Origin: Candidatus Omnitrophota bacterium
GTDB taxonomy: Bacteria > Omnitrophota > Gorgyraeia > Gygaellales > Profunditerraquicolaceae
DNA length: 64,000 nt
Assembly (NCBI GenBank): GCA_028716965.1
Contig: JAQUOV010000009.1
Location: forward strand, 22,043 to 86,042
Direction of reading: 5' to 3'
The notes beneath the pieces were generated by a model that was not told the DNA's origin, did no database searches, and saw only the letters and a list, made by a program, of their open reading frames with translations. A program made the position numbers and the translations under genes. Shown piece by piece: positions 6,759 through 28,594 of this stretch (positions are counted from its first letter, which is position 1; each line of letters starts with the position of its first letter).

Positions 6759-6809
6759 CTCTTACGCATCCAATCCTTCCGCCCTATAGCTTACCTCAAT
6801 ATGCGGGCA

Positions 6810-7145
6810 TCAAAAACTTGAGGCAATGTTATTATCCACGATGGAAACTGCCTTAAGGGTGCCGTCGGGAGCCTTATAATATTGCACATTCACCGTGTCA
6901 TTGGATTCCAGGTCGTCCAGCATTATATCGTCTATGCCGCGCTGTATCTTTGCGCCTTCCTCGACGTTAAACCTGGCTTCTTCAATGCCGTCGGATATTA
7001 CTAAAAGCGACCCGATAGAATCAACCTGGGTGACCACCCCTTCCCGGGAAAACATTTCATGGGTACTTTCTCCCTGCTCACAAAAGCTCAAGCCCGGGGC
7101 GATTAAAGAAACCGATAAAGCAGAAATACACAGCAATATTTTCAT
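6810..7145 (-). CDS. Small secreted hypothetical protein
   Basis: 111 aa with an N-terminal signal-peptide-like segment (MKILLCISALSVSLIAPGLSFC). Confidence 0.4.
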   Translation of the reverse strand: MKILLCISALSVSLIAPGLSFCEQGESTHEMFSREGVVTQVDSIGSLLVISDGIEEARFNVEEGAKIQRGIDDIMLDDLESNDTVNVQYYKAPDGTLKAVSIVDNNIASSF

Positions 7146-7197
7146 ACCCTCTCCCTCCTTTTAGTATCAACAGGTATATATCATAATGTTCATGGTG

Positions 7198-8325
7198 TTA
7201 AGCTATCTTCTTTCTGAACCTTAACGTACTCATGGTAATTACAAAGATACCAAAGACCAAAAGAATCAGGAAATTAGTCCATAAGATATCCATGCCTACG
7301 CCTTTTAAAAATATCCCCCTGATGATCACCAGATAATAACGCATAGGGTTAATCAAAGTAAAGTACTGGATAATTTGGGGCATATTAGCTATAGGATAAG
7401 CAAATCCCGACAGTAAAAATGTCGGCATATAAAACAAAAATACCGACATCATCGCCTCCTGTTGGGTTGAGGCTATCGTGGAGATAAACAGCCCTATGCC
7501 TAAAGCAGTAAATAAATACACACAGGTAGCAAGCACCAATAAAGCCAGGCTGCCCCTGAACGGGATATGGAACCATAAGATACCCAGCGTAGTGATCAAG
7601 GCGCATTGAATGAGCGCGATCACGCCGAACGGCAGGAGCTTGCCGAAGATAAGCTCAAGCGGACGCAGAGGGCTGACGATAAGCTGCTCCATGGTACCGA
7701 TCTCTTTTTCCCTTACTATTGCCATAGCCGTCAATAAAAGAGACATGATCGTTACTATTGAAGCAATTACTCCCGGTAAATAATAATTCCGCGAGATGAG
7801 GTTTTCATTAAACCAGGCGCGGTCCCTTAAATCCACGCTTGGGGCATCGGATTGTATGCCCAAAGAATCAGCATCTCCCCTGATCAACTCATCCTGGTAT
7901 TTATTCATAATCGTGTTTGCGTACCCGGAGATGATCATGGCGGTATTGGAATCCGAGCCGTCAAGGGCAAGCTGCACGCTTGCATCTTTTCCGGCTTTAA
8001 TATCGCGCCCAAACCCGCGGTCAATGCGCAAGACAGCGCTTACTATCCCTTTATCCAACATATGGTCTTCTTCAGTTCCAGTGGAAATATAATACTTCGG
8101 GATAAAATATTTAGAGTAGGTAAATCTATGTAGAAGCTGTCGGCTTTCTTTGGTGTTATCCTGGTCGTAGATCGCCGTAGGTATAAAATCAATATCTTTA
8201 TTGGCAGCATACCCAAAAATGACTATCTGTATAAGAGGCGAAATCAAAATTACTGTTTTCATCCGCGGGTCACGCAGGACCTGCTTAAACTCTTTAATCA
8301 GGATAGCCTTGATCCTCTCAAGCAT
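7198..8325 (-). CDS. ABC-2 type transporter permease (YbhR/YhhJ-like)
   Basis: 375 aa with 6 C-terminal TM helices and a large N-terminal periplasmic loop, typical of ABC-2 permeases. It follows a paralogous permease. Confidence 0.8.
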   Translation of the reverse strand: MLERIKAILIKEFKQVLRDPRMKTVILISPLIQIVIFGYAANKDIDFIPTAIYDQDNTKESRQLLHRFTYSKYFIPKYYISTGTEEDHMLDKGIVSAVLRIDRGFGRDIKAGKDASVQLALDGSDSNTAMIISGYANTIMNKYQDELIRGDADSLGIQSDAPSVDLRDRAWFNENLISRNYYLPGVIASIVTIMSLLLTAMAIVREKEIGTMEQLIVSPLRPLELIFGKLLPFGVIALIQCALITTLGILWFHIPFRGSLALLVLATCVYLFTALGIGLFISTIASTQQEAMMSVFLFYMPTFLLSGFAYPIANMPQIIQYFTLINPMRYYLVIIRGIFLKGVGMDILWTNFLILLVFGIFVITMSTLRFRKKIA

Positions 8326-13709: not shown

Positions 13710-14099
13710 CTATTTCTGCAAAACATTTTTTATCGCTTTGATTAACTTTTCAGAATCACAAGGCTTGGTTAGATAGATATCCGCTCCGATAACCCTGCCG
13801 ACAATACGGTCAACATCGGTATCTTTACCGGTCAGCATGATAACCGGAATCTTACTAAAGACGGGGTCCCTGCGGATCTCTTTACAGACCTCTTCGCCAT
13901 TTAACTTAGGAAGCATGATATCCAGGATTACCACGTCGGGATTGTCGCTTTTTATTTTTTTTAATGCCTCCTCCCCGTCAAAAGCGGCAATCACCTCATA
14001 ACCATTGGCCTCCAGCCTGAGTTTGAGAATTTTTAAGAAATCAACCTCATCATCAACAGTAAGGATTTTCTTTTTCTTGCCACCATTGTTATTAGTCAT
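13710..14099 (-). CDS. Single-domain response regulator (CheY-like receiver)
   Basis: 129 aa with the motifs ILTVDDE, phospho-acceptor D in VILDIMLP, and LTGK…KPCD. Confidence 0.85.
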   Translation of the reverse strand: MTNNNGGKKKKILTVDDEVDFLKILKLRLEANGYEVIAAFDGEEALKKIKSDNPDVVILDIMLPKLNGEEVCKEIRRDPVFSKIPVIMLTGKDTDVDRIVGRVIGADIYLTKPCDSEKLIKAIKNVLQK

Positions 14100-14162
14100 T
14101 TTCTTACCCTATGGTTTTCTCATACTGCCTGCGTATTCTCATCCTAAATTATGGAATTCCAG

Positions 14163-14531
14163 CTATCCTATAAACTTTCTTACCTTTTCCAGCAACTCTT
14201 TTGAATCAAAGGGCTTCATTATACAATCATCCGCGCCTATTTCTTTTATTTTTTCGGGCAGGCTAAGCCTGATTGCGCTGGCGGTAAATAAAATAACGGG
14301 GATATTCTTATATTTGTCATCGGATTTCAACTTCCTGCAAAGTTCATCCCCCTGCATCTTAGGCAGGAGCAGATCCAGTAATATTAAATCCGGGGTATCT
14401 TTTTGCAAGATGACTATTGCCTCCTCGGCATCGACTGCAGGTATGATCTCATAGCCTAAGTGCCTCAATCTGACCGTGGCAACCTCCATAATATCCGGTT
14501 CATCATCAACCACAAGGATCATTTTTGCCAT
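14163..14531 (-). CDS. Single-domain response regulator (CheY-like receiver)
   Basis: 122 aa with the motifs ILVVDDEPD, ILLDLLLP and FTAS…KPFD. Confidence 0.85.
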   Translation of the reverse strand: MAKMILVVDDEPDIMEVATVRLRHLGYEIIPAVDAEEAIVILQKDTPDLILLDLLLPKMQGDELCRKLKSDDKYKNIPVILFTASAIRLSLPEKIKEIGADDCIMKPFDSKELLEKVRKFIG

Positions 14532-14532
14532 A

Positions 14533-15918
14533 TCAGGCCCTCCGCTCTTTAATGGGCAATGAAAAATAAAAAGCCGTGCCTTTGCCGAATTCCGATTCTA
14601 CCCAGATCTTCCCCCTGTGCGCTTCTATTATTTTCTTACAGATGGACAGGCCAAGCCCTGTACCACCTACCTTTCTCTGTAATTGCGTAAATTCATGGAA
14701 CAGCTTTGCCATGTTCTCCTCTTTTATACCTATGCCCGTATCTTTAACCATGACTTGAACAAAATTATCCCCCTTAGCGGTACTAATAACAATACCTCCC
14801 TTTTCGGTAAATTTAAGCGCGTTATTTACCAGGTTGGTTAAAACCTGGATTATTTTATCCCTGTCAAAACTGGCCTGCGGGAGGTTCTCGCATAGCCTGA
14901 CCTCAAAAGCCAGCCCCTTCTTCTTAAACAAAAGCATCATGGAATCCTGTATCCCGCTAACTATCTTATTCATATCGCTGTCTTCTATATTGAATTCCAT
15001 CTTCCCGGATTCAAACTTCTGGAAATCTAAGACCGCGCTAATCAACCTGTCCAGCCTGTCCACATTATTCTTAACTATATTTAAGTACTTCTCTTGTTCC
15101 CCGTTAATGTCGCCCGTTATCTTATCCAAAACCACGGATACCCCTTCCTTGATACTGGCCAACGGTGTCCTTAATTCATGGGAAACAATACCGGTAAAAT
15201 CTGACTTTACCCTTACCGCTTCCGTAAGTGCTTCTTCTGCTTTTTTACGCTCGGTGATATCGCGGACGAGGATCAGGGATGCCTGACGGCCGTCCCATTC
15301 GGTCTGGCTGGAGCGGATTTCTCCGATACCCGCCTGGCCGTCCTGACGGATAATGCCGATCTCATTCATCTGTCCGGAAACAACCGCTATGCCAAAACTC
15401 TTGCCTATAAAATCATCCTTATTTACCCCAAAAATGCTCTCCGCGGAAGGATTGCAAAAACAGACTATGCCGTTATTATCCGTCACGATTATCCCATCAG
15501 CAGATTTTTCCACAATATTAAAAAAACTCTGCTTGCTTTTTTCAAGCGCGGCTTTGGCAACCTGCAGCTCTTCTTCCGCACGCTTCCTCTTTATAGACAA
15601 AAATACGGTAATTCCTGCGACACTTGCAAATATGACAATCCTTATCAAGGCCTGCTTGATTACTGACGGGTCTTTTGTAAAAGCAATGATCAGGGCAAAA
15701 TAAATAAACGCGAGGATAACGGAAAAAACAAAGCCTCTCTTTAGATAATACAGGCAGGCAATGATAATCGGGATGTAGAAAAGGTTTTGGAAGATAATGA
15801 ACCAGCCGGATGAAAGACAGTAAATGCTTACGGCAATGGTGGCCAATGTGGTTGCGGCAATTAAAACAAAAGGCGGCCAGCCTGAACGGATATTCTCAGA
15901 AGGCTTAGCGGTATTCAT
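14533..15918 (-). CDS. Sensor histidine kinase (4 TM, PAS, HisKA, HATPase_c)
   Basis: H-box SHELRTPL, N-box NLVNNALKF, G-boxes DTGIGI and GGTGLGLSI, plus an upstream PAS segment. Confidence 0.85.
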   Translation of the reverse strand: MNTAKPSENIRSGWPPFVLIAATTLATIAVSIYCLSSGWFIIFQNLFYIPIIIACLYYLKRGFVFSVILAFIYFALIIAFTKDPSVIKQALIRIVIFASVAGITVFLSIKRKRAEEELQVAKAALEKSKQSFFNIVEKSADGIIVTDNNGIVCFCNPSAESIFGVNKDDFIGKSFGIAVVSGQMNEIGIIRQDGQAGIGEIRSSQTEWDGRQASLILVRDITERKKAEEALTEAVRVKSDFTGIVSHELRTPLASIKEGVSVVLDKITGDINGEQEKYLNIVKNNVDRLDRLISAVLDFQKFESGKMEFNIEDSDMNKIVSGIQDSMMLLFKKKGLAFEVRLCENLPQASFDRDKIIQVLTNLVNNALKFTEKGGIVISTAKGDNFVQVMVKDTGIGIKEENMAKLFHEFTQLQRKVGGTGLGLSICKKIIEAHRGKIWVESEFGKGTAFYFSLPIKERRA

Positions 15919-15926
15919 TAAATAAG

Positions 15927-17141
15927 TTAATACAGGTGGACGACATCTTCCGCATGATGCAACGAAAGGAACAACAACATATACTCCCTTAAATGGCGCG
16001 TTATCAGAAAATTATTCTTTACATGCTCCCGGCCATTCTCTCCCAGTTTCCTGGCGTATGCCGGGCTGCTTAAGAGTTGTTTTATAGCAAAGCTGGCCCC
16101 TTCGATTGAATGACAAAGCAAACCCGAATATTTATGTTTTATCTGTAAGGGAATCCCTCCGACATTTGAAGCTACAACAGGTTTTGCTTTCCATAACGCC
16201 TCTGAAACAGTCAAGCCAAATCCTTCTTTGATAGACTTTTGCACAATTACATCTGAGGCCCTTTGCAACGCGTTGATCTCTATATCATTTTGAGGCAACA
16301 GCAAAATATGAATATCCGGGTCATTCTTGGCTTTTTCCTGAACCTCCTTTAATACTTTAAACCCTTCCGGGTCATCATCCGCGGCTCCTCCGGCCAAGAT
16401 CAGCTGACAATTAATATATTTTTTTACCTGCAGGTATGCTTCAATTACGCCTACCGGGTCTTTCAGGCGGTCAAAACGCGATATCTGCGTGATAATCGGC
16501 TTGTCTTTCTTGATATCGTATTTCTTTAATACCGCATCAATCTTCTCCTGCGGCAATTCTTTATTCTTGTCGCTTAAAGGGTCAATAGAAGGAGAGATCA
16601 GGAATTGCCTGATCGGCAACTTCCGGGAAAAGTCCGGGGCAGAGAATACCGCGGAGTCGTAATGCACTATGAAATCCATAAGAAAATCCCAAGCTTTTTT
16701 ACTGGGGTTAGATACGTCAATATGGCAGCGCCAAATCCATTTATTATCGGCTTTCTTTTTGATCAAGGCTATCGGCTGCGGGTCATGGACAAAAACTATA
16801 TCTCCGTATGTATTGACATTGGCGATATTTTCCTGGCTTGTCTGCATAAATATCTCAAAGTCTCTTTGGGTTATCTCCTCGGGCCTGCCGTGCAAGGCAT
16901 TATGGAACTTCTTGGTTACCCCAAAAAACTGCTCTCCTCCTTTTATAACATCCCATTTCGTGTCTACCCCTAATTCCCTTAACAAAGGCACCATGCGGCT
17001 TAATATCTCCGCCACCCCGCCGCCTACAGGAGTAGAATTTATATGCTGGATGACCTTGCCTTTTAACCGCTCGCCAAGCAACATTAGGTCGTCAATAACC
17101 GCCTGCCCTACCAAAGGTATATATTCTTCTATTTTTGCCAT
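15927..17141 (-). CDS. treT: Trehalose glycosyltransferring synthase TreT (GT4)
   Basis: 404 aa. Strong motif-level similarity to archaeal and bacterial TreT: HINSTPVGGGVAEIL, FFGVTKKFHNAL, VHDPQP…WRCHID, PPSIDPLS, ITQISRFDRLKDP, DDPEG, LQRASDVIVQKSIKEGFGLTVSEALWKAKPVV, NFLITRHLREY. Confidence 0.8.
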   Translation of the reverse strand: MAKIEEYIPLVGQAVIDDLMLLGERLKGKVIQHINSTPVGGGVAEILSRMVPLLRELGVDTKWDVIKGGEQFFGVTKKFHNALHGRPEEITQRDFEIFMQTSQENIANVNTYGDIVFVHDPQPIALIKKKADNKWIWRCHIDVSNPSKKAWDFLMDFIVHYDSAVFSAPDFSRKLPIRQFLISPSIDPLSDKNKELPQEKIDAVLKKYDIKKDKPIITQISRFDRLKDPVGVIEAYLQVKKYINCQLILAGGAADDDPEGFKVLKEVQEKAKNDPDIHILLLPQNDIEINALQRASDVIVQKSIKEGFGLTVSEALWKAKPVVASNVGGIPLQIKHKYSGLLCHSIEGASFAIKQLLSSPAYARKLGENGREHVKNNFLITRHLREYMLLFLSLHHAEDVVHLY

Positions 17142-17813
17142 TTAACCGGTTATCCTTTTTTCAACTGCCTGTATAATCTTATTCCTTAAATCCTCCAAGG
17201 TGCAGGTATAAGGGTCAAATCCGGATATCTTATCCGCTAATTCTTTATCTCCCAGAGAATTTTCTATCCAGTATGAAAAATCATTTGTCGGCTTTTCCAG
17301 CCTAAGGCGCGCTTCAAAGATATGGAAATAAATGGAATCTATGGTGATCTTCTTTAAAACCTCCGCAAATTCCGAGAGGTCATAAACAATATAATTTGTC
17401 GGCAGGATAAAACTTACGGACTTAATAAAATGGAATTCTTCCCCGCTTCTGGCAAACTTCAATTTGGCAAACGGGCTATCCCTTAAATGGTCTTCAATGG
17501 TTAAAGCGATTTTTTCCCGCAGGTCACGGATGGTGGAATATTGCATGGTATCAATACTAACCAGCTTCTCCCCCAGCTCATCCTCTCCGAGAATTTCCGT
17601 TACCCAATAGGCAAAATCATTAGGAGGTTCGGGAGATAGGTATTGATGCTGTTGCAGAAACCTATGAGTATGATGATAGATACATGAACCGGGGACCTCC
17701 TTGATAAATGTTAAGAGCTGGCCCAAAGTAGAGGCACGTAACCCGGTCAGCTCCGAAAGGTGCAGCCTGGTGCAAAACTTAAACGGGTCTTTTGCTCTTA
17801 TTAATTCCGGCAT
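17142..17813 (-). CDS. Conserved hypothetical protein with an internal tandem duplication, TreT-associated
   Basis: 223 aa with two repeats of about 75 aa (NDFAYWVTEILGEDELGEKLVSID…IRDLREKIALTIEDHL and NDFSYWIENSLGDKELADKISGFD…LEDLRNKIIQAVEKRI). It abuts treT with no gap. Confidence 0.5.
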   Translation of the reverse strand: MPELIRAKDPFKFCTRLHLSELTGLRASTLGQLLTFIKEVPGSCIYHHTHRFLQQHQYLSPEPPNDFAYWVTEILGEDELGEKLVSIDTMQYSTIRDLREKIALTIEDHLRDSPFAKLKFARSGEEFHFIKSVSFILPTNYIVYDLSEFAEVLKKITIDSIYFHIFEARLRLEKPTNDFSYWIENSLGDKELADKISGFDPYTCTLEDLRNKIIQAVEKRITG

Positions 17814-17820
17814 AATTTAC

Positions 17821-18612
17821 CTACTTTGAATCCGATATGAAACGCAAAAACCTGGTTACTTCCTTTGTATTTTCCAGATAGTAATCCGCTTCGGAATTAG
17901 CGGGTTTGCCCACAACAACCGTCAACCCCTTGTTTTTTAATGCTTTAAAAGCATCTTCATCGGTAACGTCATCGCCTATGTATACGGGTAGGATCCCGTT
18001 TTTATTCTGCACAAACTTCTGCCTTGCCAAAAGCCACAAAACAACCTTTCCCTTATCCCAGTTCAAGGCAGGCCTTATCTCAAATATCTTCTTCCCCGGC
18101 TTAACCTGGATCTTATTCTTTCCCAAACAGGAAATAACGCTTTCATGAAAAACGCTTTCAATAAAAGCAAGGTGCTCTTTATCAACAAGCCTGAAATGCA
18201 GGACCAGGGATAATTTTTTATCCTCTATAAGAACGCCTTTTATTCCCGAAAGCTTTTCTTTCAGCCTGGCCTTGATACTCTGCAATGTTTCTATATAGCC
18301 GGCAGGCACCGCTAATTCATATTTTAGCTTTGGCCCTTCAATTTGAAAACCGTGTACACCCGAATAAATAATATCATTTAGGCCGACTATCCTCTTCAGG
18401 TCGCCTAAAGACCTTCCGCTGATAATTGCTATCCTGCAGTTATCCTTCTGCGACAGGAGCCTGAGCAATTCTTTTGTTTCCTGGGGGATCTCCACCTTGT
18501 CCGGAGTATTGACAATCGGCGCCAATGTGCCGTCGCAATCAAGAAACAAAAACAGTGATTTGCCCCCGATAGTCTCTTTTATCTTCTTTAAATCATCAAA
18601 AATATAGCGCAT
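17821..18612 (-). CDS. otsB: Trehalose-6-phosphate phosphatase OtsB (HAD family)
   Basis: DCDGTL motif I, SGR motif, and the GDDVTDEDAF motif. Confidence 0.85.
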   Translation of the reverse strand: MRYIFDDLKKIKETIGGKSLFLFLDCDGTLAPIVNTPDKVEIPQETKELLRLLSQKDNCRIAIISGRSLGDLKRIVGLNDIIYSGVHGFQIEGPKLKYELAVPAGYIETLQSIKARLKEKLSGIKGVLIEDKKLSLVLHFRLVDKEHLAFIESVFHESVISCLGKNKIQVKPGKKIFEIRPALNWDKGKVVLWLLARQKFVQNKNGILPVYIGDDVTDEDAFKALKNKGLTVVVGKPANSEADYYLENTKEVTRFLRFISDSK

Positions 18613-18618
18613 CTTCTA

Positions 18619-19674
18619 TCAGGATGCTTTTTCCTGTTCGTAGTTTATCGCCCTTATCGGATAGGGGATATTTATGCCTTCCTGCAAATAGCGCTTATGC
18701 AGCCTCTTGATAAACTCATGCTTGATCAGGTACTGGTCAACAAATTCCTTAGCCCTTAATATTACCGTAAACTTAATGCTGGAATCTCCGAAAGCGTTAT
18801 AGCGGATAAACGGGTCAAAATAGGCCACCCCGCCGCTTACATCCGTCATCACGGATTTTGCCACTTCGCAGGTAATCTTTTCCACTTTTTCCAGGTCGCT
18901 CTTATAATGCACCCCCAGGTCAACTAAAACCGCCATCTCCTTATCCGGCAAATAATAGTTGGTAACAATGATCTTGCTTAATTTATCGTTCGGTATAAGG
19001 ATGAGGTTATTGGGCAACATCTTGATCTTGGTCGAACGCCAATTGATATCAACCACATAGCCTTCTTCGCCGGTTTCCAGTTTAACATAATCTCCTACCC
19101 TTATCTGCTTGGCCACAGTTATATGAAAACCGGCAAACAGGTTTGAGAGGGTATCCTGTAACGCCAAGGCCACTGCCAAGCCCCCCACGCCTAAAGTTGC
19201 CAATACCGGAGTTATGGATATACCTAAACTGTTAAGGATTACCAGCGTGCCGACACAGTAAACAAAGATCCTGGCAATATTCTGGGTAAGAGTGGTGACA
19301 GGCAGGGCAGAATCAATCCGGGAGGCGTAAACTCTTATTACCCCGGACAAAAGGTTTGCTAATGTTAATACTACGGAAATTAAGCCCAGGACAAAGATAC
19401 TCTTGCCCATAACATCCACGATATTGCCTGAAAGATTTGAAAACTGCAACGCAAAATACAAGGCCAGGACCAAACATAAAAACGTAAAAGGGGCCCTCAC
19501 TGCCTGCACAATGACATCATCCAGTTGCGTAGATGTTTTTTTGGCCCAATATGAAAACCGGCTAAAGATTATCTTCTTGACGATAAAGCCTATAGACAAA
19601 ACTACCAAGAAAATGATTAACGGCATGAGTATTTCGGCTAAACCCGCTAATTTTAAAAGTAAATCTTTATTCAT
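18619..19674 (-). CDS. MscS-family mechanosensitive channel
   Basis: 351 aa with 3-4 N-terminal TM helices, a conserved pore helix (…GVGGLAVALALQDTLSNLFAG…) and a C-terminal beta domain. Confidence 0.8.
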   Translation of the reverse strand: MNKDLLLKLAGLAEILMPLIIFLVVLSIGFIVKKIIFSRFSYWAKKTSTQLDDVIVQAVRAPFTFLCLVLALYFALQFSNLSGNIVDVMGKSIFVLGLISVVLTLANLLSGVIRVYASRIDSALPVTTLTQNIARIFVYCVGTLVILNSLGISITPVLATLGVGGLAVALALQDTLSNLFAGFHITVAKQIRVGDYVKLETGEEGYVVDINWRSTKIKMLPNNLILIPNDKLSKIIVTNYYLPDKEMAVLVDLGVHYKSDLEKVEKITCEVAKSVMTDVSGGVAYFDPFIRYNAFGDSSIKFTVILRAKEFVDQYLIKHEFIKRLHKRYLQEGINIPYPIRAINYEQEKAS

Positions 19675-19683
19675 TCATGCCTC

Positions 19684-21981
19684 CTAAGTTATATTCTTTA
19701 AAGCAACCAGCTCGTTAATGATATTAGCGGCCCAGCGGTAAATATTATTTTCAGCTATAACCTTTCGCATATTTTCCATACGCCTCTGCTTTTCTTCTTT
19801 CGGCATCTCGATCGCAAGTTTTATGCTGTCCGCAAACTCCTCGATAGAATAGGGGTTGACTAAGATGGCATCGGTAAGCTCACGGGAGGCGCCGGTAAAC
19901 TGGCTTAAGATCAGGGCCCCGGATAAATCATCCTTCTCTGCCACATATTCTTTAGCCACCAGGTTCATCCCATCATGCAGGGAACTGACAATACAAATAT
20001 CACCAAGCTTATAATAAGGATGGATGTCATCCTGGGAAAAATGTTTTTTAAGGTAGATTATCGGCTTCCAATTCCCGTCTATATGCTTCCAGTTAATCCT
20101 CTCCACCAGCTCGTCAATCTCCCCGCTTAAATCATGGTAACGTTTGATATGCGTACGGCTTGGAGCGGCCAACTGCATAAACACAAATTTCTTTTTATAT
20201 TCAGGATACTTCTCCAGAAACCTGTCTATAGCCAAGATCCTCTCGACTATTCCCTTAGTGTAATCAATCCTGTCTACGCCCACAGCAATAATCTCATCCT
20301 TGAGCTCAAACTCTTTCTTCAGCTTTTCCACCTGCCTTATCGGGTCAACCTTAAATGAACCATCATCAATATGGGCTTTAATGCTTATGGGGAAAGCCCT
20401 GATAAAAGTCTCTTTCCCTAAACGCACGACACTGAATTTCTCTGTGTCTACGCGTGATTCAAGCAGGCGGTTGGCAGTATCAAGAAAATTATTACAATGA
20501 TTTTGTACATGAAAACCGATCAAATCGCATCCCAGCATACCTTCCAGGATTTCATTTTGGTAGGGGCAGATCATAAAAGCCTCCGGAGTAGGCCAGGGGA
20601 TGTGCCAGAATAAGGCAATTTTTGCATCCGGGCGCTTATCTTTTATCATCTTCGGCAAGAGAGTAAAATGATAATCCTGCACAAATATAAAAGGGCTGCT
20701 TGCCGGCAGCTCCTCCAAAACACTATCGGCAAACTTCTGGTTTACTTCCTTATACATGCGCCAGTCAAACTCCCTGAAAACAGGGCGAGTATGCGTATTA
20801 TGGCATAAAGGCCACAGGCCTTCATTTGAGAAACCGTAATAATACCCCTGCTCCTCCTCTTTATTCAACCAAACCCTTTTCAGGATATAGCGGTTATCTT
20901 CCGGCGGCACGCCAAGCTTATCTTTAGAATTAACGAATTTCCTGTCGAAGTTGCCGCTGCCGCTAGCAACCCATGTGCCGCCGCAGGCGGAAAGTATGGG
21001 ATGGAGTGCAGTAACCACTCCGCTTGCCGGCCTTATGCATATAGGCTTGCTCGTGCTCTCATCAAAAATATGCATATACGGCTCCCTGTTGGAAACAACG
21101 AATAATGAATTATCTCCCAACTTTGCGTGGATGAGGTCTTTGAGCTTGGATTCTGTCCAAAGCTCCTCCTTCTGCAGGCGTACATGTGCTTCATCGGATA
21201 TGGTACGGCGGGCCACCCTTATGCTTAAAGCTACCTGCTCTACTTCACTAATAAGCTTTCCAAATTCCCCTTTTTCTTGAAAAGGCTGTAATTTATCAAT
21301 CTCCCCTCTCTGGAAATGCTTAAACCATTGGGTCAGGCGGCGCACGGGAACGATAAAAATCTGCCTCTGGATTAACAGGGCGATCAAGACGATCAACAAA
21401 ATAAGCGTTATGGAGGTTACGCTTATTTTCCTCCATAATTCAGTTAAGGTAGCAAACATGTAAGAGGTATCATAAATTACCTCCACCATCCCTAATACGT
21501 TTCCTTCATCATCCAGAACGGGCAAAATATAACTATATACGGAATATTCTTTAAATTTCTCCAAAGCTCCGCGGGGCTTCTTCAAAGACAGGATATCCTT
21601 AAGATAGGGCCTGTCTCTCTGTTTAAAGTCAGAAAAACGTTCGGTAATAGCTAATATCTGACCGTCCTTATCATAAATGACGCAGCCCTGCAGCCTTTCC
21701 CTTTTCTGGAAACTATCGACTAAACGGTTGGCTTGCTTTAAATCGTTATTAATAAGTATATATTTGGCGGATAATTCCAGGCTTTCATCCACAGACCTGG
21801 CTTTTCTTTTCAGATCATCCATCAGCTTGTCTTCGGTAAAACGGGCCTGCATAATACCCGAGATAGCGAATCCAAGCGCAACCAGGATTAATATCGGAAG
21901 GATAAAAAGAAGGATTCTTTTCATTAATTGATCTCCAAAAAACAGCCACCTGATTATTAAATCAGATGGCGGCCCAACCAT
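19684..21981 (-). CDS. otsA: Sensor-fused trehalose-6-phosphate synthase: TM, Cache-like periplasmic domain, TM, HAMP, OtsA (GT20)
   Basis: The C-terminal 480 aa or so carries GT20 OtsA motifs (LWPLCH, FWHIPWP, DLIGFH, VDRIDYTKG, SLHDGMNLVAKEY). The N-terminal 280 aa has two TM helices flanking a Cache-like segment (YSYILPVLDDEGNVLGMVEVIYD) and a HAMP-like helix. The likely true start is the Met at about 21924 (GGAG RBS, MKRILLFILPILIL). The first 19 codons of the track ORF are probably not translated. Confidence 0.85.
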   Translation of the reverse strand: MVGPPSDLIIRWLFFGDQLMKRILLFILPILILVALGFAISGIMQARFTEDKLMDDLKRKARSVDESLELSAKYILINNDLKQANRLVDSFQKRERLQGCVIYDKDGQILAITERFSDFKQRDRPYLKDILSLKKPRGALEKFKEYSVYSYILPVLDDEGNVLGMVEVIYDTSYMFATLTELWRKISVTSITLILLIVLIALLIQRQIFIVPVRRLTQWFKHFQRGEIDKLQPFQEKGEFGKLISEVEQVALSIRVARRTISDEAHVRLQKEELWTESKLKDLIHAKLGDNSLFVVSNREPYMHIFDESTSKPICIRPASGVVTALHPILSACGGTWVASGSGNFDRKFVNSKDKLGVPPEDNRYILKRVWLNKEEEQGYYYGFSNEGLWPLCHNTHTRPVFREFDWRMYKEVNQKFADSVLEELPASSPFIFVQDYHFTLLPKMIKDKRPDAKIALFWHIPWPTPEAFMICPYQNEILEGMLGCDLIGFHVQNHCNNFLDTANRLLESRVDTEKFSVVRLGKETFIRAFPISIKAHIDDGSFKVDPIRQVEKLKKEFELKDEIIAVGVDRIDYTKGIVERILAIDRFLEKYPEYKKKFVFMQLAAPSRTHIKRYHDLSGEIDELVERINWKHIDGNWKPIIYLKKHFSQDDIHPYYKLGDICIVSSLHDGMNLVAKEYVAEKDDLSGALILSQFTGASRELTDAILVNPYSIEEFADSIKLAIEMPKEEKQRRMENMRKVIAENNIYRWAANIINELVALKNIT

Positions 21982-22099
21982 CTTAAAAATTACCTCCGGA
22001 GACTATAGGCTATCTCCAGACCGCTTATTAATCTGTATTTATTATACTACTTTCAATTAATACCTCAAGAGGTATCTTGGATTATAGGTAATTACAGTA

Positions 22100-23137
22100 T
22101 CAAATCGATCCGGCCTTATTCATTTCAATACGTATCCGCGGCAGGCTCTCCGGAAAACGCTGCTGTAAAAACTCAAGCAATTTTTCCCTGACTTCGCAAC
22201 GCAGATCCCACATGGTAGGAGAATCCCCCGCGCTCATCAAGGCGCGCAGCTCAACTGTTTTATCAGTGGCGTTGGTAACCTGCAGCACATTTACCTTTTT
22301 ATCCCATTTCGGGCTGTTCTCCAGGATGCGCGTTAATTCATTACGCACTTCTTTGACTGGAACGCTATAGTCGGTATAAATAAAAACCGTCCCCAGTAAA
22401 TCCGCCGAAGTGCGCGTCCAATTCTGGAATGGCTTTTCAAGGAAATACGATATCGGCACCACCAGGCGCCGCAGGTCCCATATCCGCACTACCACAAAAG
22501 TCAAAGTGATCTCCTCAATCCACCCCCATTCATCCTCTATAATTACCACATCATCCAGACGGATTGGCTGGGCTATGGCTATCTGGATACCGGCGATAAA
22601 ATTACCCAGTGTCTTCTGGGCAGCAAAACCTATAACTATACCGACAACCCCCGCGGAAGCCAATATGCTCACGCCTATATGCTTGACCTGCGGGAAGCTT
22701 ATCAAGATAAAAGAAATAGTCAGCAAGACTATGACCACGACTAAGATATTTGATATCACGCGCATCTGCGTATGCATGCTGCGGGCACGTATATTGTCAG
22801 GCGTATTTATATTGTAACGCTTAAGAAGCGCATCGCGAAAGATGTAAACAACCTTAATGACAAGCCAACCAAACAACGCAATAAACAAAAGATGCATAAA
22901 GTTAGCGATAAATAAACGTGTCTTCGCCGGTATCTTCAATAGAGGCAAAACTGCTGAAACGCAGAAAGCGGGCATTAAAAAACGCAACGGGCTTTTAAGC
23001 AACGCCAGGTTAACTTCAAGCAATTTTGAAGACAGGCTACCTCTCCGCTTGATGAGAAATACGGCAATTAGATAAAATACCCAACCGAGAATAAAACCGG
23101 AGGCTATTAAAATACCAGAAAACATATAATCATCCAT
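22100..23137 (-). CDS. MscS-family mechanosensitive channel (second copy)
   Basis: 345 aa with a conserved MscS pore region (…VGIVIGFAAQKTLGNFIAGIQIAIAQPIRLDD…). Confidence 0.75.
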   Translation of the reverse strand: MDDYMFSGILIASGFILGWVFYLIAVFLIKRRGSLSSKLLEVNLALLKSPLRFLMPAFCVSAVLPLLKIPAKTRLFIANFMHLLFIALFGWLVIKVVYIFRDALLKRYNINTPDNIRARSMHTQMRVISNILVVVIVLLTISFILISFPQVKHIGVSILASAGVVGIVIGFAAQKTLGNFIAGIQIAIAQPIRLDDVVIIEDEWGWIEEITLTFVVVRIWDLRRLVVPISYFLEKPFQNWTRTSADLLGTVFIYTDYSVPVKEVRNELTRILENSPKWDKKVNVLQVTNATDKTVELRALMSAGDSPTMWDLRCEVREKLLEFLQQRFPESLPRIRIEMNKAGSI

Positions 23138-23154
23138 GATCTTAAATCCTTTCC

Positions 23155-24495
23155 TTATTTACCTATAGCGGTTATTTTACCAGGGGGCATCCGGCGGACG
23201 GAAAGGTTATTTTCCCGCCCGCTATATTTTACCAGCCGCCTTGATTTAGGTTTGGAAGAAGAGTGGGAAAAGAACCTAAAGTTGGTCCAGTATTCTACTC
23301 CCGGCTTAAAACGTGATAAACCTGCCACTTGCTGGGCCTTAAACAATAGTATGCTGACAAATAAAATAAAAACCGGCAGGATAAACAGCAGGCGCCTGAA
23401 CAGAAATCGCCCTTCCTGCTTCAACCCGATTATGCAGGGGAAAATACCAAAGAGCATTACCACGCCTATGCCTCCGACAAAATCAAGCGCGCTAAGGAAT
23501 ATATTCGGATAGATGAGGGCAATGACCAAAGGAGGCATGAAAGAAAGAGCCATGGTCAACCTCCTGTCCTTTAGCTTAATAAAATTTACTGTAATGTCAT
23601 CGATAAAATCCATCGTGGTATTGCCGAAAGATAAGTAGGAAGTGATAATAGCCATGAGGGCGAAAAAAAGCGAGAGAGGATAGAATAAGCGTATCTTTAT
23701 TGCCTGGGCCAAAGGCACGGTGGCCGGCAGATTATTAGAAAGCGCGTTTGTAATACCGTTATTGCCCGATAGCGGCAATACCCCGATGCCGACCTGTATC
23801 CATAATGAATTCATGATAAAACCGATAAGCGTACCGATAGATATGGCCAAGAATACCCTCTTAAAATTCCAATCCAAATGTTTGCAGACAGTCGGTATGA
23901 TATTGTGAAAATTCGCCGCCATTACGATAATCGGAAGCGCTGCCGGCAGCATTGCCCAATCAACGTGCTGGAAACGCTGGGGGACTACGTATCTTTCACC
24001 CATTAAGACGATAGCTATAAAAGAAAGCAGTAATAACCCCACAAATAAAGCATTACATTTAAGAAGCGCCCTGGGGTTAGCTATAGTGATCGCTGTCACA
24101 GGCAGGAAGAATAATAATATGACTAATTCCCTGGAAATATGTATATTCGTAAACCTGACGATAATAGCAGTGGCGCCGGTAATATATACTACCAGCGAAC
24201 CATAAAGGATGATCAGGTTAGCCAGAGTAGCTATCCATTGCCCGCAGGGACCGAAATACTGCCGATACATGCTCGGATAATGGAATACTTCCTGGTGCGT
24301 CCTTACCGCCTCTTTCCCCAGTATGAAAGCGGTCAAAAACATAGCGCAGCTTATTGCAAAAGTCCCAACCAGGGAAGGCAACAGCCCTGCGGGACCGGTC
24401 TTGATAGGAAGCCCTAAAATCCCTGCGCCTATAAGATTACCCGTTATAAAACAAGTAACCATTATTACGAGGGAAAAGGAAATTTTTTTATTCAT
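23155..24495 (-). CDS. Amino-acid permease of the HAAAP (Trp/Tyr/Ser permease) type
   Basis: 446 aa with 11 TM helices. The N-terminal GNLIGAGILGLP motif is typical of TnaB/Mtr/TyrP-type permeases. It has an unusual basic C-terminal tail. Confidence 0.65.
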   Translation of the reverse strand: MNKKISFSLVIMVTCFITGNLIGAGILGLPIKTGPAGLLPSLVGTFAISCAMFLTAFILGKEAVRTHQEVFHYPSMYRQYFGPCGQWIATLANLIILYGSLVVYITGATAIIVRFTNIHISRELVILLFFLPVTAITIANPRALLKCNALFVGLLLLSFIAIVLMGERYVVPQRFQHVDWAMLPAALPIIVMAANFHNIIPTVCKHLDWNFKRVFLAISIGTLIGFIMNSLWIQVGIGVLPLSGNNGITNALSNNLPATVPLAQAIKIRLFYPLSLFFALMAIITSYLSFGNTTMDFIDDITVNFIKLKDRRLTMALSFMPPLVIALIYPNIFLSALDFVGGIGVVMLFGIFPCIIGLKQEGRFLFRRLLFILPVFILFVSILLFKAQQVAGLSRFKPGVEYWTNFRFFSHSSSKPKSRRLVKYSGRENNLSVRRMPPGKITAIGK

Positions 24496-25195
24496 TTATA
24501 ACAGGGTCATGCCTGGCTGCCGAGAATATCCTGCTGATAGCGTCCTCCTTGGCATAGCAGATTAACTCATCGTCTACCTTAAGGACAACATCTCCATGCG
24601 GAGCGCCGATGAATACTGTTTTTTTGCCTTCTTTACGATAAATAGCTAAAATAAGCACCCCTTCCAGCTACATCTTTAAGTCTTTTATTGACTTCTCACT
24701 GCAGGGGTTATCCTTTTTTACGGTAATCTTTGCTATCGCGTAGCCCTCTCCTAAGCCAAACAACTGCTCGTAATCATAAATGCGCAAGGTCGTCCATTTT
24801 TCAAGTGCCTTGGTAATCACAACCTTCATCACATTGTAAATATATTTTGAGCGGGCAAGGATAAAAATACACAACAGCCCTGATAATAATACTTCTCCTC
24901 TTACAAGAACGCTCTTGCCTGTCAAGCCTACGAATGCCAATACGAGCGTTGCGATGGCAGTAGTCACTCCTGCGCTGCCCCAAAGAATAAGGATTTTTAT
25001 AATACGCCTGCGCACGGGATGCGTAACAATAGCCTCGGATTCAACGGTAGTAAAACCAGCCCCCGAGAACGCCGACTGAGCCTGGAAAGAAGCTATTTCG
25101 GAAGATAAACCGGTAAGCTCTAAAGCAATAGCGCCTATCCTGACTACGATAATTGAGAGTATAATAATTATTAGTAAACTAAATAAAGCGATCAT
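24488..25195 (-). pseudogene. Membrane protein with C-terminal RCK_C (TrkA-C) domain interrupted by an in-frame TAG (24668-24670)
   Basis: The track ORF 24668-25195 ends …YDYEQLFGLGEGYAIAKITVKKDNPCSEKSIKDLKM then TAG. The same frame continues LEGVLILAIYRKEGKKTVFIGAPHGDVVLKVDDELICYAKEDAISRIF…, completing a canonical RCK_C domain. The final stop overlaps the ATG of the downstream permease (ATGAATAA). Confidence 0.55.
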
Positions 25196-25292: not shown

Positions 25293-26294
25293 TCAATTGA
25301 GTAATGCCTCCACAGAGGATAAGATTTGCAGGATCGATTTCTTCTTATTAGGAATATAGCAGCCCGCTATATCAAAATGCCCTCCGCCTTTGTATTCCTG
25401 CGCAACCTTGCCTATATTAATATCGCCTTTGGACCTTAAGCTTACTCTTAATGTCTTGCTATCCTTTTCCCTGAATAATACCGCGATCTCAATCCTCTTC
25501 ATGGAATTCATTTCGTTTGCTATCGGGTCAGCATCATAAACTTTTCCCCCGACCATGGCAATGTCCCTGCTCCTTAGCATTGACCAGATGATCCTTCCTT
25601 TTTTCAGGAATTTAGCCCTCAATAAAGAAATAGCCAATAGCATCATACTTTCTTTTGTCCTTGAACCATAAACCTTATCTACCAGTTGAGAAAAATTTAT
25701 CCCCTCTTTCAACAGTTGCGCGCATATTTTAAAGGTAACAGGCCTGATCTGCGTCAATTTGAATAAATTAGTTTCCACAATTACCGAAGTAAGAAGATTT
25801 TCGGCTATCTCCCGGTTTATTTTAATATTTAATTTTCTTAAAAGAAAGAACACCAATTCACCCACGGCAACTGCCTTGTAATCGACAATCTGCATATCGC
25901 CGAAAGGTACTCTGAATTCATGATGGTCTATCTCAAGTACGGATTTTGCTTTTTTGAATACCGGGATATTCTTACCCAAAAGACCGATAATACTGCAATC
26001 AACGGCTATTGCCAAATCCACTCTCTTCCTTGTTGTCCTGACTATACGCTCTGCGCCGGGCAGAGACCTGTAGCTTGGAGGTATTTCGTCCTGGCATAGC
26101 ATATATACCTTCTTGCCAAGGCCGCTCAAAGCCAGCCCCAGCGCCAGAAGCGAACCTATTGAATCGCCGTCCGGATAGACGTGGCCGGAGATAGCTATGC
26201 TATTTGCCTTCAGTATCTTCTGCCGGATATTTTTAAAACCCTTCATATGCTTTTTCGGCGTTTCGCCAGGCTGTTTATATCTTTTCAACCTCAA
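25293..26294 (-). CDS. DHH/DHHA1 phosphoesterase (NrnA/DhhP-like; candidate c-di-AMP and nanoRNA phosphodiesterase)
   Basis: DHH motifs (ISGHVYPDGDSIGS, DHH in EIDHHEF) and a DHHA1 GGGH motif. It overlaps the cdaA fusion gene by about 20 nt, and an internal Met may be the true start. Confidence 0.8.
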   Translation of the reverse strand: MRLKRYKQPGETPKKHMKGFKNIRQKILKANSIAISGHVYPDGDSIGSLLALGLALSGLGKKVYMLCQDEIPPSYRSLPGAERIVRTTRKRVDLAIAVDCSIIGLLGKNIPVFKKAKSVLEIDHHEFRVPFGDMQIVDYKAVAVGELVFFLLRKLNIKINREIAENLLTSVIVETNLFKLTQIRPVTFKICAQLLKEGINFSQLVDKVYGSRTKESMMLLAISLLRAKFLKKGRIIWSMLRSRDIAMVGGKVYDADPIANEMNSMKRIEIAVLFREKDSKTLRVSLRSKGDINIGKVAQEYKGGGHFDIAGCYIPNKKKSILQILSSVEALLN

Positions 26295-27729
26295 TAGTTA
26301 TTTTTACATCAGGAGGCTTATCTCCTGGAAAACGGACCTCCGCCGGGATAATGAGCTTGGGGGTTATAGTTGCTGTTTCTGTTATTGACCTTAATTCAAC
26401 AGGCTCTGTTGCAATGAAGATTCTTTTTAAATCTACCGTATCGGGGACCTTAACCAATACCTCCTGAGGTTCAACCTTTATCTCCTTAATATTGACTCCG
26501 GAAGGCGCGCGGCCATTCGTCTTTATCTGTACGGGGACACTGGCGGATATCATCTTATATAATTTGATCGGAATCTCCTTCGGCTCTATATTGACCAGAG
26601 AAAGCCCGGCGGGCTTGCGTACCATATCCTTATCCAGATAATATTTCCCTTCCCCTTCTTCAATCTTTGACATATCCATGGATAGCTTAAGCTCTTTAGG
26701 GTCAAGAAGGCTGAAAGCCCGTTCCGAACCGCTCAGGGTAATGGTTACATCCTTAGGTTTCGTCTCGCTGATTATCCTGTCCTGGGCAAGATTACGGTAT
26801 TCGACCGGGATGACAAAGTCGCGGCGGATCGTTTCCGTGCGGTGCCCAAATGCCAGCCATAGAGCAGAGACCAGAATGACAGCAATAATCTTTTCCGGGA
26901 AATGCCCTTTTAAAAAATTCATCGAGAGCACTTTATGTTTTGCAGGAAATTTCTCTCTATAGAACTTCTCTAAAATATTACGCACTTTTCCGATATCCTC
27001 TAATTGCGTTATCTTGCCATCTTCTGCTACCGAAATCGTACCCCGTTCCTCTGAAATAACAATACAGAGCGCGTCTGTGCGCTCGGCAAGGCCTAATGCG
27101 GCGGCATGACGCGTACCTAAATGCCCAACCTCTTCTATATTTGTAGAAAGAGGCAGGTGGCAGCCAAACATGGCAAGCCGCGTTCCCTCAATAATAACCG
27201 CTCCATCATGACTTGGGCTGTTGGGTTCAAAGATACTCTCGATCAGCATCTGGCTCAGCAGTGCATCTGAACGTATCCCCGTTACAAGATAACGGTCCAA
27301 TGGGTCCTGTCCCTGCACGACAATTAAAGCGCCGATTTTCTTACGCGAAAGGTTGGCCAGTCCGCTGGTTAACATAGCAATTCCATGGTCTTGTGAAGAA
27401 ACTGACGGGCTGCGTCGCGCTATTCCCCAAATAGCTATCCGCTCAAAAAAATGGCGGAAATCATCCTGGAAGATAACTACAATCATAATAAGAAAAATGG
27501 CAAAGAACGCCTGAAACACCATAGTAGTCAGATAGAGGCCGAAAAAACGCGCTAAAATATAAATAAAACCCAATATAATCATCCCCATCATGATAAAGCG
27601 CACTCGCGCTTTCTCAAGCCAGACCAGGATTATATAAACAAAGATGGATATAATGCTTATATCGATAAAATCGACAAATCTGAATGTCTGGAAGAATTCC
27701 GCAATCTTTTCAAGTATTTTAGCAACCAT
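26275..27729 (-). CDS. cdaA: Diadenylate cyclase CdaA fused to a YbbR/CdaR-like domain
   Basis: N-terminal 3 TM helices, then a DAC domain (DGAVII, GTRHAAALG). This is followed by a TM segment and a C-terminal region of about 220 aa with YbbR-like beta repeats. Confidence 0.8.
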   Translation of the reverse strand: MVAKILEKIAEFFQTFRFVDFIDISIISIFVYIILVWLEKARVRFIMMGMIILGFIYILARFFGLYLTTMVFQAFFAIFLIMIVVIFQDDFRHFFERIAIWGIARRSPSVSSQDHGIAMLTSGLANLSRKKIGALIVVQGQDPLDRYLVTGIRSDALLSQMLIESIFEPNSPSHDGAVIIEGTRLAMFGCHLPLSTNIEEVGHLGTRHAAALGLAERTDALCIVISEERGTISVAEDGKITQLEDIGKVRNILEKFYREKFPAKHKVLSMNFLKGHFPEKIIAVILVSALWLAFGHRTETIRRDFVIPVEYRNLAQDRIISETKPKDVTITLSGSERAFSLLDPKELKLSMDMSKIEEGEGKYYLDKDMVRKPAGLSLVNIEPKEIPIKLYKMISASVPVQIKTNGRAPSGVNIKEIKVEPQEVLVKVPDTVDLKRIFIATEPVELRSITETATITPKLIIPAEVRFPGDKPPDVKITIEVEKI

Positions 27730-27780: not shown

Positions 27781-28594
27781 GGTTTTATCATATCACATTA
27801 AAAACTATATCATTCTCAACTCCCGCTGCAAAAATGGAAACAACGCCTCCGCTTGCGCTTGCTTTAATGGCATTACTCAATAAATTTACCAGAATACGCA
27901 AAAGCAACGAATAATCGGTATAGAAATCTTTCGGCAGCAGCTGCAAGTGCTATTCCAGCGCAATCTTCTGATTATTCGCGTATACAGAGACCATTTCCAG
28001 TGACGAAGCGATTGCCGTATCTATATCCGTATTTTTTATCCCCAACGGCATTCTTTTGGATTCCAGGCAAGACAGATCAAGAATCGAATTAATAAGCACC
28101 TGCCCTCTTTGCGCCGCGATCTTGCAAATAGTTGCCATCTCTTTCTGCGTTTTGTCCAAAGAAGTAAAATCTTCCAGATTGTTAACGACTGATGAAATCG
28201 CGCTCATCGGGACGCGTAAGTCATGAATTATAAAATTTATAAAATCTTCACGCGTCTCCTGGGAACTGCGGATCTTGAATATGAATAACGCGAATATTGT
28301 AAAAACTATAAACCTGATACTGCCGTTCCAAATAAAAATATATGCGGAAGAATAAAAATGCCCCGAAAAGATATTTATAAAAGCCCAGGCGAAGATGCTT
28401 ATTAAAGACGCAAAAATCCCCAAAGATAAACTGCCATACCAGGCCATTATCCCTATCGGCAGGAGATAGAATATAAAAAATTGAAGCTCAATACCGGTTA
28501 TATAATCCAGAAACCCGATTATACATATCAATACTAAAGCCAGTATAAAATAATATTTATGAATTATTGCTTTCAAGGCACGGTCTATTTTCAT
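27781..28594 (-). pseudogene. Histidine-kinase remnant: DUF4118-like membrane domain plus HisKA, an in-frame TAG at 27950-27952, and the HATPase N-box only
   Basis: FLDYITGIELQFFIFYLLPIGIMAWYG (KdpD-type DUF4118) and H-box HDLRVPMSAI. After the TAG the frame continues HLQLLPKDFYTDYSLLLRILVNLLSNAIKASASGGVVSIFAAGVENDIVFNVI then TGA TAA. The G1 and G2 boxes are absent. Confidence 0.6.

Follow-up and report, generated by a model that had tools for sequence, protein, structure and literature searches.

A probable cation-induced trehalose operon with a co-expressed channel gene in Omnitrophota

What holds the genes of trehalose synthesis together with a mechanosensitive channel and a two-component signalling set, and what switches them on? 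The question is raised by an eight-gene cluster, running from otsA to a pair of receiver genes, in a 64,000-nucleotide (nt) stretch of DNA (the window) from a Candidatus Omnitrophota metagenome-assembled genome. A first-pass annotation had read these genes as a self-contained turgor and compatible-solute module with a phosphorelay of its own. The osmoadaptation part of that reading, trehalose plus turgor, holds in our analysis, and it is strengthened by a regulator that had been overlooked: what appears to be an nhaA-I riboswitch with an overlapping terminator, directly upstream of otsA. A cation riboswitch in this place is independent evidence for salt-responsive expression. We regard the locus as probably a trehalose operon induced by a cation, with a release valve expressed alongside the enzymes; of its eight genes four form a conserved core, the channel gene recurs often, and the rest were added locally and, it seems, recently.

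The genes lie on the minus strand, and the open reading frame (ORF) listing agrees exactly with the coordinates first given for them and with gaps of 0–9 nt plus one of 63 nt (in order from otsA to the second receiver gene: 9, 6, 7, 0, 8, 1 and 63 nt). The names first assigned (OtsA, MscS, OtsB, TreT, PAS kinase, receivers and, further upstream, a permease) match the domains found with Pfam and NCBIfam. The features of the unit, from its 5′ end, are:

22041–22068, minus strand: promoter-like site, TTGAGG-16 nt-TATAAT (consensus scan, 10/12 matches)
21964–22023, minus strand: predicted riboswitch aptamer of the nhaA-I class (Li+-I / Na+-II), stems P1 and P2 (Rfam RF03057)
21936–21970, minus strand: predicted intrinsic terminator hairpin and U-run (terminator scan: 11 pairs, then TGTTTTTTGG)
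19684–21924 (listed ORF 19684–21981), minus strand: receptor-type OtsA, GT20 (Glyco_transf_20, 421 bits)
18619–19674, minus strand: MscS-1, between otsA and otsB (all three MscS Pfam domains)
17821–18612, minus strand: OtsB (TIGR00685, 166 bits against a cut-off of 68)
17142–17813, minus strand: OrfY/DUF5752 protein with two internal repeats (PF19027, 230 bits against a cut-off of 23)
15927–17141, minus strand: TreT-family GT4 (TreT_GT1, PF21269, 187 bits)
14533–15918, minus strand: membrane-embedded PAS histidine kinase (PAS, HisKA and HATPase_c, Pfam)
14163–14531, minus strand: single-domain response regulator 1 (Response_reg, 90 bits)
13710–14099, minus strand: single-domain response regulator 2 (Response_reg, 100 bits)

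The listed otsA ORF opens at an ATG, 21981, that falls within the RNA hairpin. The true start is almost certainly ATG 21924 (MKRILLF...): a GGAG Shine–Dalgarno sequence precedes it, and an identical database protein of 746 amino acids (aa) begins there. The spacer between otsA and the upstream channel gene mscS2 is therefore 175 nt long, and it holds, in order, the promoter-like site, the riboswitch and the terminator. Because these elements intervene, mscS2 and the permease gene before it would form a separate upstream unit. Co-orientation is weak as evidence for an operon, since most genes of the window are on the minus strand; in this genome the locus is very probably one transcription unit. 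Its end appears to be marked 3′ of receiver 2 by a U-run and then a strong promoter-like site (TTGACA-16-TATTAT at 13631–13604), past which lies an OEP/HlyD/ABC efflux operon.

The riboswitch matches RF03057 at 22023–21964 with 37.7 bits, the gathering score being 37 (E 6.5e-4 over the whole window, 3e-6 locally), and the leaders of relatives reach 41–56 bits. In an alignment of 46 leader sequences all 8 pairs of P1 covary, with changes on both sides, and 92% of the cells are paired; slid controls were 40–61% paired, and 0 of 500 shuffles matched the observed score. Little or no variation is seen in the GGGCCGCC loop and the AGG junction, and in most relatives the conserved aptamer core lies ~50 nt upstream of otsA, or of an mscS gene that abuts it. 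One segment, GCCAUC, serves both as the 5′ arm of the terminator and as the 3′ arm of P2 in the aptamer, which makes the terminator hairpin the likely expression platform. The minimum-free-energy fold of the leader contains P1 and the terminator without P2, suggesting that the default state is OFF. A terminator hairpin with a U-run, its stem sequence differing from leader to leader, was found in 45/45 related leaders.

The nhaA-I class is a validated cation-activated ON switch whose expression rises on Li+ binding, and rare terminator-type variants of it respond to Na+ (White et al. 2022, PMC9646797). The window leader has the two-stem aptamer of these RNAs, their GGGCCGCC loop and 3′ arm and their AGG junction, and would follow the same ON logic. 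With the Na+-II variants it shares the terminator platform, that is, an intrinsic terminator overlapping the aptamer; those variants, however, have been reported from Deltaproteobacteria only, precede unknown genes and carry C at the specificity position (PMC9646797), whereas leaders of the window type come from Omnitrophota, precede a defined trehalose operon and carry U. Both otsA (16 of 944 members) and mscS (3 of 944) are already among the genes associated with nhaA-I, and whether the otsA-linked members sense Na+ or Li+ was left undecided by the authors (PMC9646797).

How much of the cluster do related genomes share? Two sets of loci bear on this: 30 loci on metagenome contigs, anchored on OtsA, and a GTDB set anchored on DUF5752, found with an 18-sequence DUF5752 alignment as query. 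The latter comprises the best 80 loci out of at least 589 species with a relative, one genome per species and all Omnitrophota. The exact OtsA of the window has no record in the contig collection. The species counts given here rest on this best-80 set, with neighbours annotated by means of the window's own proteins and assessable species as denominators; individual loci carry L numbers. Over ~100 related loci the conserved core consists of receptor-type OtsA, OtsB, DUF5752 and TreT. The treT gene stands directly 3′ of the DUF5752 gene in 79/79 species and otsB directly 5′ of it in 76/78, and OtsA has its long sensor form in 51/57 and the catalytic domain alone in 6. The metagenome loci show the same core as the GTDB loci, and the linkage, present in all related loci of sufficient length, exceeds chance. 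The first-pass annotation had named conservation of gene order as a check on its proposal; the check comes out in favour of the four-gene core and against the eight-gene unit, of which only that core is conserved while the channel gene varies. Beyond Omnitrophota, the DUF5752 family is on record in Elusimicrobia, Brocadiales and Nitrospirota (scattered record names only), and one Elusimicrobia genome has the same four core genes with a plain OtsA. In a few relatives treT is split into two ORFs (L003/L004 13738–14950, L119 9451–10671, L112 5260–6478), which could reflect a frameshift, a pseudogene or an assembly error. Transfer RNA genes lie just upstream of riboswitch-mscS-otsA in L045 (two, 5265–5499), L107 (two, 146–432) and L112 (one, 1–85).

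With a model built from the leader alignment, a riboswitch was detected directly before the first gene of the cluster, be it otsA or an mscS that abuts it, in 30/55 species (29 by script and L053 by hand) and 0.3–2.5 kb upstream in 6 further species. A search of the more distant loci L115–L124 gave no matches. A copy stands directly 3′ of treT in 10/65 species. Other copies in these genomes precede genes for a CLC channel, a Na+/Ca2+ exchanger and Band 7, peptidoglycan-binding and OmpA-LysM proteins, or short hydrophobic ORFs followed by a CitMHS transporter. The window itself holds a second copy (54993–55047, minus strand, 50.5 bits, with its own terminator), which precedes tandem Band 7/SPFH genes (53945–54940 and 52983–53942, minus strand). 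In several species a CBS-pair protein and a Na+/H+ exchanger are inserted between otsA and otsB, and in one a DUF1646 fragment. Taken together, the other riboswitch targets and the ion-transport inserts point to ion and osmotic stress.

Which cation is sensed? The supplement of PMC9646797 gives the construct sequence, from which we located the specificity position ('position 54' of the D. propionicus construct, the last of the P2 5′ arm); this position is U in the window and in 45/46 relatives, instead of the C reported to mark Na+-II. This U agrees with the Li+-I state, most nhaA-I RNAs are Li+-selective, and Li+ has been raised as the signal for otsA (PMC9646797). The locus might then be a lithium or general cation-toxicity operon, its riboswitch sensing Li+ and its trehalose guarding against Li+ toxicity and not serving osmotic balance. 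We think this improbable. The terminator-type members tested respond to Na+ (PMC9646797), the other copies of the riboswitch appear to control a wide range of ionic and osmotic functions, the same cluster has taken up genes for a Na+/H+ exchanger and DUF1646, and Li+ is rare in groundwater and lakes. On physiological grounds we favour Na+ as the ligand.

Further copies and inserts were recorded in passing. Where a riboswitch copy follows treT, it is itself followed by a hydrophobic-peptide ORF (MDKGMR.I.I.MG.CIL.G.LCV.FA...) and, several hundred bases on, by a CitMHS-type transporter (L089 at ~11340, L099 at ~12000, L045 at ~12070, L035 and L052); in L095 (5400–5500) the same peptide ORF lies between riboswitch and otsA. 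L081 and L083 have a riboswitch-Band 7 unit immediately 5′ of their mscS-otsA cluster. The CBS, exchanger and DUF1646 inserts lie between otsA and otsB in L063, L071, L073 and L104, after mscS1 in L016, L043 and L091, and at 5860–6360 in L107. The otsA/otsB junction that takes up ion-transport genes elsewhere is the site of MscS-1 in the window.

Is a phosphorelay also part of the conserved system? The claim of a dedicated one implies a PAS kinase that responds to osmotic or membrane stress and receivers that signal to the trehalose enzymes or the channel, in a turgor module complete in itself. The proteins are fit for such a role: the kinase has its H box (SHELRTPL) and ATPase motifs, the acidic pair, phospho-acceptor Asp, Thr and Lys of both receivers are visible in the translations, and a membrane-embedded kinase N-terminus without a periplasmic domain fits membrane sensing. 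Gaps of 8 nt from treT to the kinase gene and 1 nt from there to the first receiver gene suggest co-transcription in this genome, and L003/L004 have a different two-component set, with its own riboswitch copy, just upstream of the trehalose cluster, so that salt-induced sets recur. The comparison of genomes speaks the other way. Kinase, receiver and receiver follow treT only in L031, one close relative among the metagenome loci; within 2.5 kb downstream of treT, 0/43 assessable species have a kinase or receiver gene; and in L007 treT is followed at once by the efflux operon found after the window cluster as well. Two-component genes near the cluster in ~8/80 other loci were considered as linkage and rejected: they are 27–47% identical, stand at varied positions and, by a rough estimate, are no more than chance would give. 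The conserved regulator of the cluster is the riboswitch and not a phosphorelay. We therefore give the module with its own phosphorelay little credence, and infer that the kinase and the two receivers are a recent lineage-specific addition to the cation-induced operon.

Two observations concern two-component genes more generally. In L003 a riboswitch copy (4487–4554) lies directly before genes for a TarH/4HB sensor kinase, an NtrC-type regulator and a single-domain receiver (4533–8016), and this set is just upstream of that genome's own riboswitch-otsA cluster. In the window a 214 aa protein (27950–28594, minus strand) has a membrane N-terminus and HisKA without an ATPase domain; it might take part in phosphotransfer with stand-alone receivers.

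The channel has a firmer place in the cluster than the kinase. The link between channel and trehalose genes drawn in the first-pass annotation is borne out by an MscS gene adjacent to the core, at one of two positions, in 27/49 species, and by MscS–DUF5752 fusions in other lineages. The gene abuts otsA upstream in 22/49 species (17 MscS-1-like, 5 MscS-2-like); in 10/66 it lies between otsA and otsB, as in the window, with decayed remnants in 2 more, and 14 metagenome loci have it there. Wherever an MscS gene abuts otsA and a riboswitch was detected, the riboswitch precedes the channel gene, so that this gene belongs to the controlled unit; of the window genes, MscS-1 falls within the unit and MscS-2 and the permease do not. 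MscS-1 has the TM3 pore helix, the beta domain and the C-terminal alpha/beta domain (all Pfam), and MscS-2 the beta domain only. Both score under the NCBIfam equivalog cut-offs, and both appear to be MscS-family channels. Orthologues of MscS-2, 65–68% identical, abut otsA elsewhere, sometimes with a riboswitch before them (L040, L050).

The second mscS and the permease do lie upstream of otsA, as first reported; they belong, however, to a different unit, which includes an RCK_C gene and comes before the promoter-like site and the riboswitch. Its members, from the 5′ end, are:

24493–25195, minus strand: membrane protein with TrkA_C (RCK_C), in-frame TAG at 24668–24670
23155–24495, minus strand: Trp/Tyr-permease-family transporter (Trp_Tyr_perm, 163 bits, Pfam)
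22100–23137, minus strand: MscS-2 (MS_channel_2nd, Pfam)

The permease scores 148 bits against TIGR00837 (NCBIfam), under the cut-off of 350, and the stop codon of the TrkA_C gene overlaps its start. TrkA_C is detected (E 1e-7) only if the in-frame amber codon at 24668–24670 is read through, and the homologue in L001 is unbroken, has 225 aa and carries TrkA_C; the TAG could mark a pseudogene, a sequencing error or readthrough. Further upstream (25293–27729, minus strand), 3–6 kb from otsA, are a CdaA-YbbR cyclic di-AMP cyclase and a DHH/DHHA1 phosphoesterase. The CdaA gene is the immediate upstream neighbour of otsA in L079 and L114 and lies not far off in L044 and L059, which may reflect a cyclic di-AMP signalling link to the trehalose cluster or mere shared synteny.

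The enzymes of the core look intact. OtsA matches PF00982 with 421 bits over profile positions 3–471 of 473, and TIGR02400 with 429 bits, under the equivalog cut-off of 565; the motifs FWHIPWP, RIDYTKG and DGMNLVAKE, chosen after E. coli OtsA and taken to be the catalytic His, Arg/Lys and Asp/Glu motifs, are invariant in 111 homologues. Ahead of the GT20 domain is an N-terminal extension of ~270 residues, laid out as a first transmembrane segment (TM1), a single Cache-like domain, TM2 and HAMP-like helices. On its own this N-terminus scores 29.7 bits for sCache_3_2 against a cut-off of 28.4; the HAMP match is weak (E 0.09), and we therefore call the linker HAMP-like. An AlphaFold2 (AF2) model with a predicted local distance difference test (pLDDT) score of 80.6 shows TM1 and a long helix, a PAS-like sheet of five strands, TM2, a pair of long helices and a GT-B fold. 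Solved OtsA structures match residues 269 onwards only, leaving the N-terminus uncovered. The input half, TM-Cache-TM with HAMP-like helices, is that of Cache/HAMP receptor enzymes (sensor kinases, HAMP adenylate cyclases, diguanylate cyclases), and the output differs in being a GT20 glycosyltransferase. To our knowledge no such output on a Cache/HAMP receptor has been described, though no literature search was aimed at the point. From its domain layout and model, OtsA activity is probably tuned post-translationally as well, by an external or membrane signal.

OtsB carries the HAD motifs DCDGT and GDDVTDE and scores above the TIGR00685 equivalog cut-off. TreT matches solved TreTs over its full length (residues 3–394), best of all T. 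uzoniensis TreT (6ZJ4, E 3e-124) and then P. horikoshii TreT (2X6Q, E 5e-102), and is predicted to make trehalose from nucleoside diphosphate (NDP)-glucose and glucose. The first-pass annotation had called it reversible. Its closest solved homologue is of the Thermoproteus type, and for T. tenax the TreT pathway has been described as running one way (PMC3634074); against the Thermococcales equivalog NF041139 the window protein scores 373 bits, under the cut-off of 775, and is no Thermococcales-type orthologue, so that reversibility is not to be inferred for it.

Between OtsB and TreT sits what had first been called a repeat protein. An internal duplication is indeed visible in the alignment, and the family is OrfY/DUF5752, of which a structure was solved in 2014 (PDB 4CSO, OrfY of T. 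tenax). The window protein matches it by profile with E 7e-54, and its AF2 model (pLDDT 89) superposes on 4CSO_A with a TM-score of 0.82 and a root mean square deviation of 2.7 Å; no other PDB fold matches the model. We found no function described for OrfY/DUF5752 in the literature searched. Its TreT partner is likewise homologous to the Thermoproteus type, and orfY and treT are reportedly neighbours in T. tenax too (Kouril et al. 2008). Unlike that of T. tenax, the window pair sits within an otsA-otsB cluster that also has a channel and a riboswitch.

A full-library search returned 810 representatives of the DUF5752 family, and fusions were classed among the best 150. Fifteen of these 150 are MscS–DUF5752 proteins, in which DUF5752 replaces the C-terminal alpha/beta domain of the channel; OtsB–DUF5752 and maltokinase-like (Mak-like)–DUF5752 fusions also occur, and none of the three kinds was mentioned in the literature searched. 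A common OtsB–DUF5752 fusion of ~460 aa was considered and rejected, the proteins in question being MscS–DUF5752. In all three MscS–DUF5752 proteins whose contigs were examined, TreT is directly downstream, and of the contexts examined apart from the Omnitrophota scans TreT comes directly after DUF5752 in 6/7, the exception being L123, where none is annotated. The order in L122 is sensor-OtsA (45% identical to that of the window over its full length), OtsB, MscS–DUF5752 fusion and TreT, as if it were the window operon with channel and OrfY joined in one protein.

What, then, does OrfY do? The depositors of 4CSO named the molecule 'ORFY PROTEIN, TRANSCRIPTION FACTOR', and orfY always stands directly upstream of treT, as many local regulators do; a DNA-binding factor that regulates treT, and is no protein-level partner of TreT or MscS, would account for both facts. 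It seems to us an unlikely answer, given that OrfY has no HTH-type (helix-turn-helix) Pfam match and no known DNA-binding fold, the only PDB fold match being 4CSO, and that a DNA-binding domain would hardly be expected on an MscS C-terminus, OtsB or a maltokinase-like enzyme. The stop codon of orfY abuts or overlaps the treT start (0 nt in the window, 4 nt overlaps elsewhere), as would suit stoichiometric partners. Most likely, OrfY is a protein-level partner or regulator of TreT, able to couple to the channel because elsewhere it is fused to MscS. A bolder proposal, that OrfY is a cytoplasmic domain tying MscS physically to TreT at the membrane while an extracytoplasmic Cache domain sets the activity of OtsA as a true receptor enzyme, is tentative, and we lean towards doubting it; under it OrfY may be a separate subunit in the window and fused to the channel in other lineages.

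DUF5752–TreT pairs also occur beside GlgE, TreS-like amylase, glycogen-synthase-like and maltokinase-like genes (L115, L120, L123), and one could accordingly picture OtsAB and OrfY–TreT as a carbon-reserve module for trehalose and alpha-glucan cycling, with channel and kinase as chance neighbours. Control by a cation riboswitch argues against this, as do the recurrent adjacency and fusion of MscS and the ion-transport inserts; even L120 and L124, whose contexts are of the glucan type, have MscS-like genes, and we hold the idea to be very improbable. In those two a large domain, maltokinase-like in L120, forms the N-terminal part of a DUF5752 fusion, after which come TreT, then a GT2 gene or unknown genes, and MscS or an MscS-like gene; L120 adds a stand-alone DUF5752.

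The arrangement had been put forward as one not yet described. It has precedents (PMC3634074, PMC9646797), and these cover it only in part. In E. coli, OtsA and OtsB are soluble enzymes under RpoS control. The pathway of E. coli otsBA is likewise salt-induced (cited in PMC3634074) but lacks the sensor domain, channel, TreT, OrfY and riboswitch. Closer is the msc-gt-tpsp operon of T. tenax (Zaparty et al. 2013, PMC3634074), which also combines trehalose-phosphate synthase (TPS), trehalose-phosphate phosphatase (TPP) and an MscS-like channel, and for which the same model was proposed: trehalose made under stress, with the channel letting it out on down-shock. In that operon TPS and TPP form one fused protein, and the synthase is activated by complex formation with a PimA-like GT4; riboswitch, synthase sensor domain, TreT, OrfY and two-component genes are all lacking, and the authors call the arrangement unique to Thermoproteales (PMC3634074). 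The window locus is bacterial, has separate otsA and otsB and combines them with OrfY–TreT; its sole GT4 is TreT-family, and the fused TPS–TPP and PimA-like GT4 of the T. tenax complex are absent. TreT was considered as a counterpart of the activating GT and rejected, being TreT-family along its full length. By analogy, the window locus would work like msc-gt-tpsp without being a member of that arrangement. That operon and the published, unexplored association of otsA with nhaA-I (PMC9646797) are the closest precedents; new, as far as checked, are the operon-level picture across Omnitrophota, the receptor-type OtsA, the DUF5752–TreT pair and the MscS–OrfY fusions.

In the operon as we picture it, transcription probably starts at the promoter-like site (22068–22041) and then meets the riboswitch (22023–21964). 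Without ligand, the leader would fold into P1 and the terminator and transcription would halt. A rise in cytoplasmic Na+ (possibly Li+) would let P2 form and take up the GCCAUC needed by the terminator, and read-through would yield a transcript of otsA, mscS, otsB, orfY, treT, the kinase gene and both receiver genes. TreT, always accompanied by OrfY/DUF5752, would use NDP-glucose and glucose to make trehalose. The extracytoplasmic Cache-like domain and HAMP-like linker of OtsA would probably tune its activity after translation. When external osmolarity drops, the co-expressed MscS would release solutes, as in the model for T. tenax msc-gt-tpsp. OrfY would most likely act on TreT at the protein level, with coupling to the channel as a possibility, and the newly gained kinase and receivers would have been brought under the same cation control.

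Several points weigh against this picture. The score of the window riboswitch is marginal (37.7 against 37), and the alignment-derived model detected none before the cluster in 19/55 species. The promoter at 22068–22041 is a consensus match alone, and the 63-nt gap and the kinase genes could hold internal promoters. The U at 'position 54' is not only the Li+-I state but also that of a mutant with broadened specificity. By their record titles, the relatives come mostly from groundwater and lakes, where salt stress is not an obvious main pressure. The linker of OtsA is modelled with low confidence (pLDDT 45–58), and the name given to 4CSO by its depositors is that of a transcription factor.

For nhaA-I RNAs, this locus and ~45 homologous leaders offer a defined, conserved test case for the sensing of Na+ or Li+, and the physiological output is clear. 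With receptor-type OtsA, the range of outputs under Cache/HAMP inputs would come to include a glycosyltransferase, and the MscS, OtsB and maltokinase-like fusions, together with the downstream TreT, give a concrete hypothesis of function for the orphan OrfY fold. If OrfY does couple channel and enzyme, trehalose synthesis and solute release would be jointly regulated at the membrane, and a single compatible solute would be subject to three layers of control: an RNA, a receptor enzyme and a channel–enzyme complex. For Omnitrophota, the outline of a salt- and ion-stress regulon emerges that is open to probing with metatranscriptomes.

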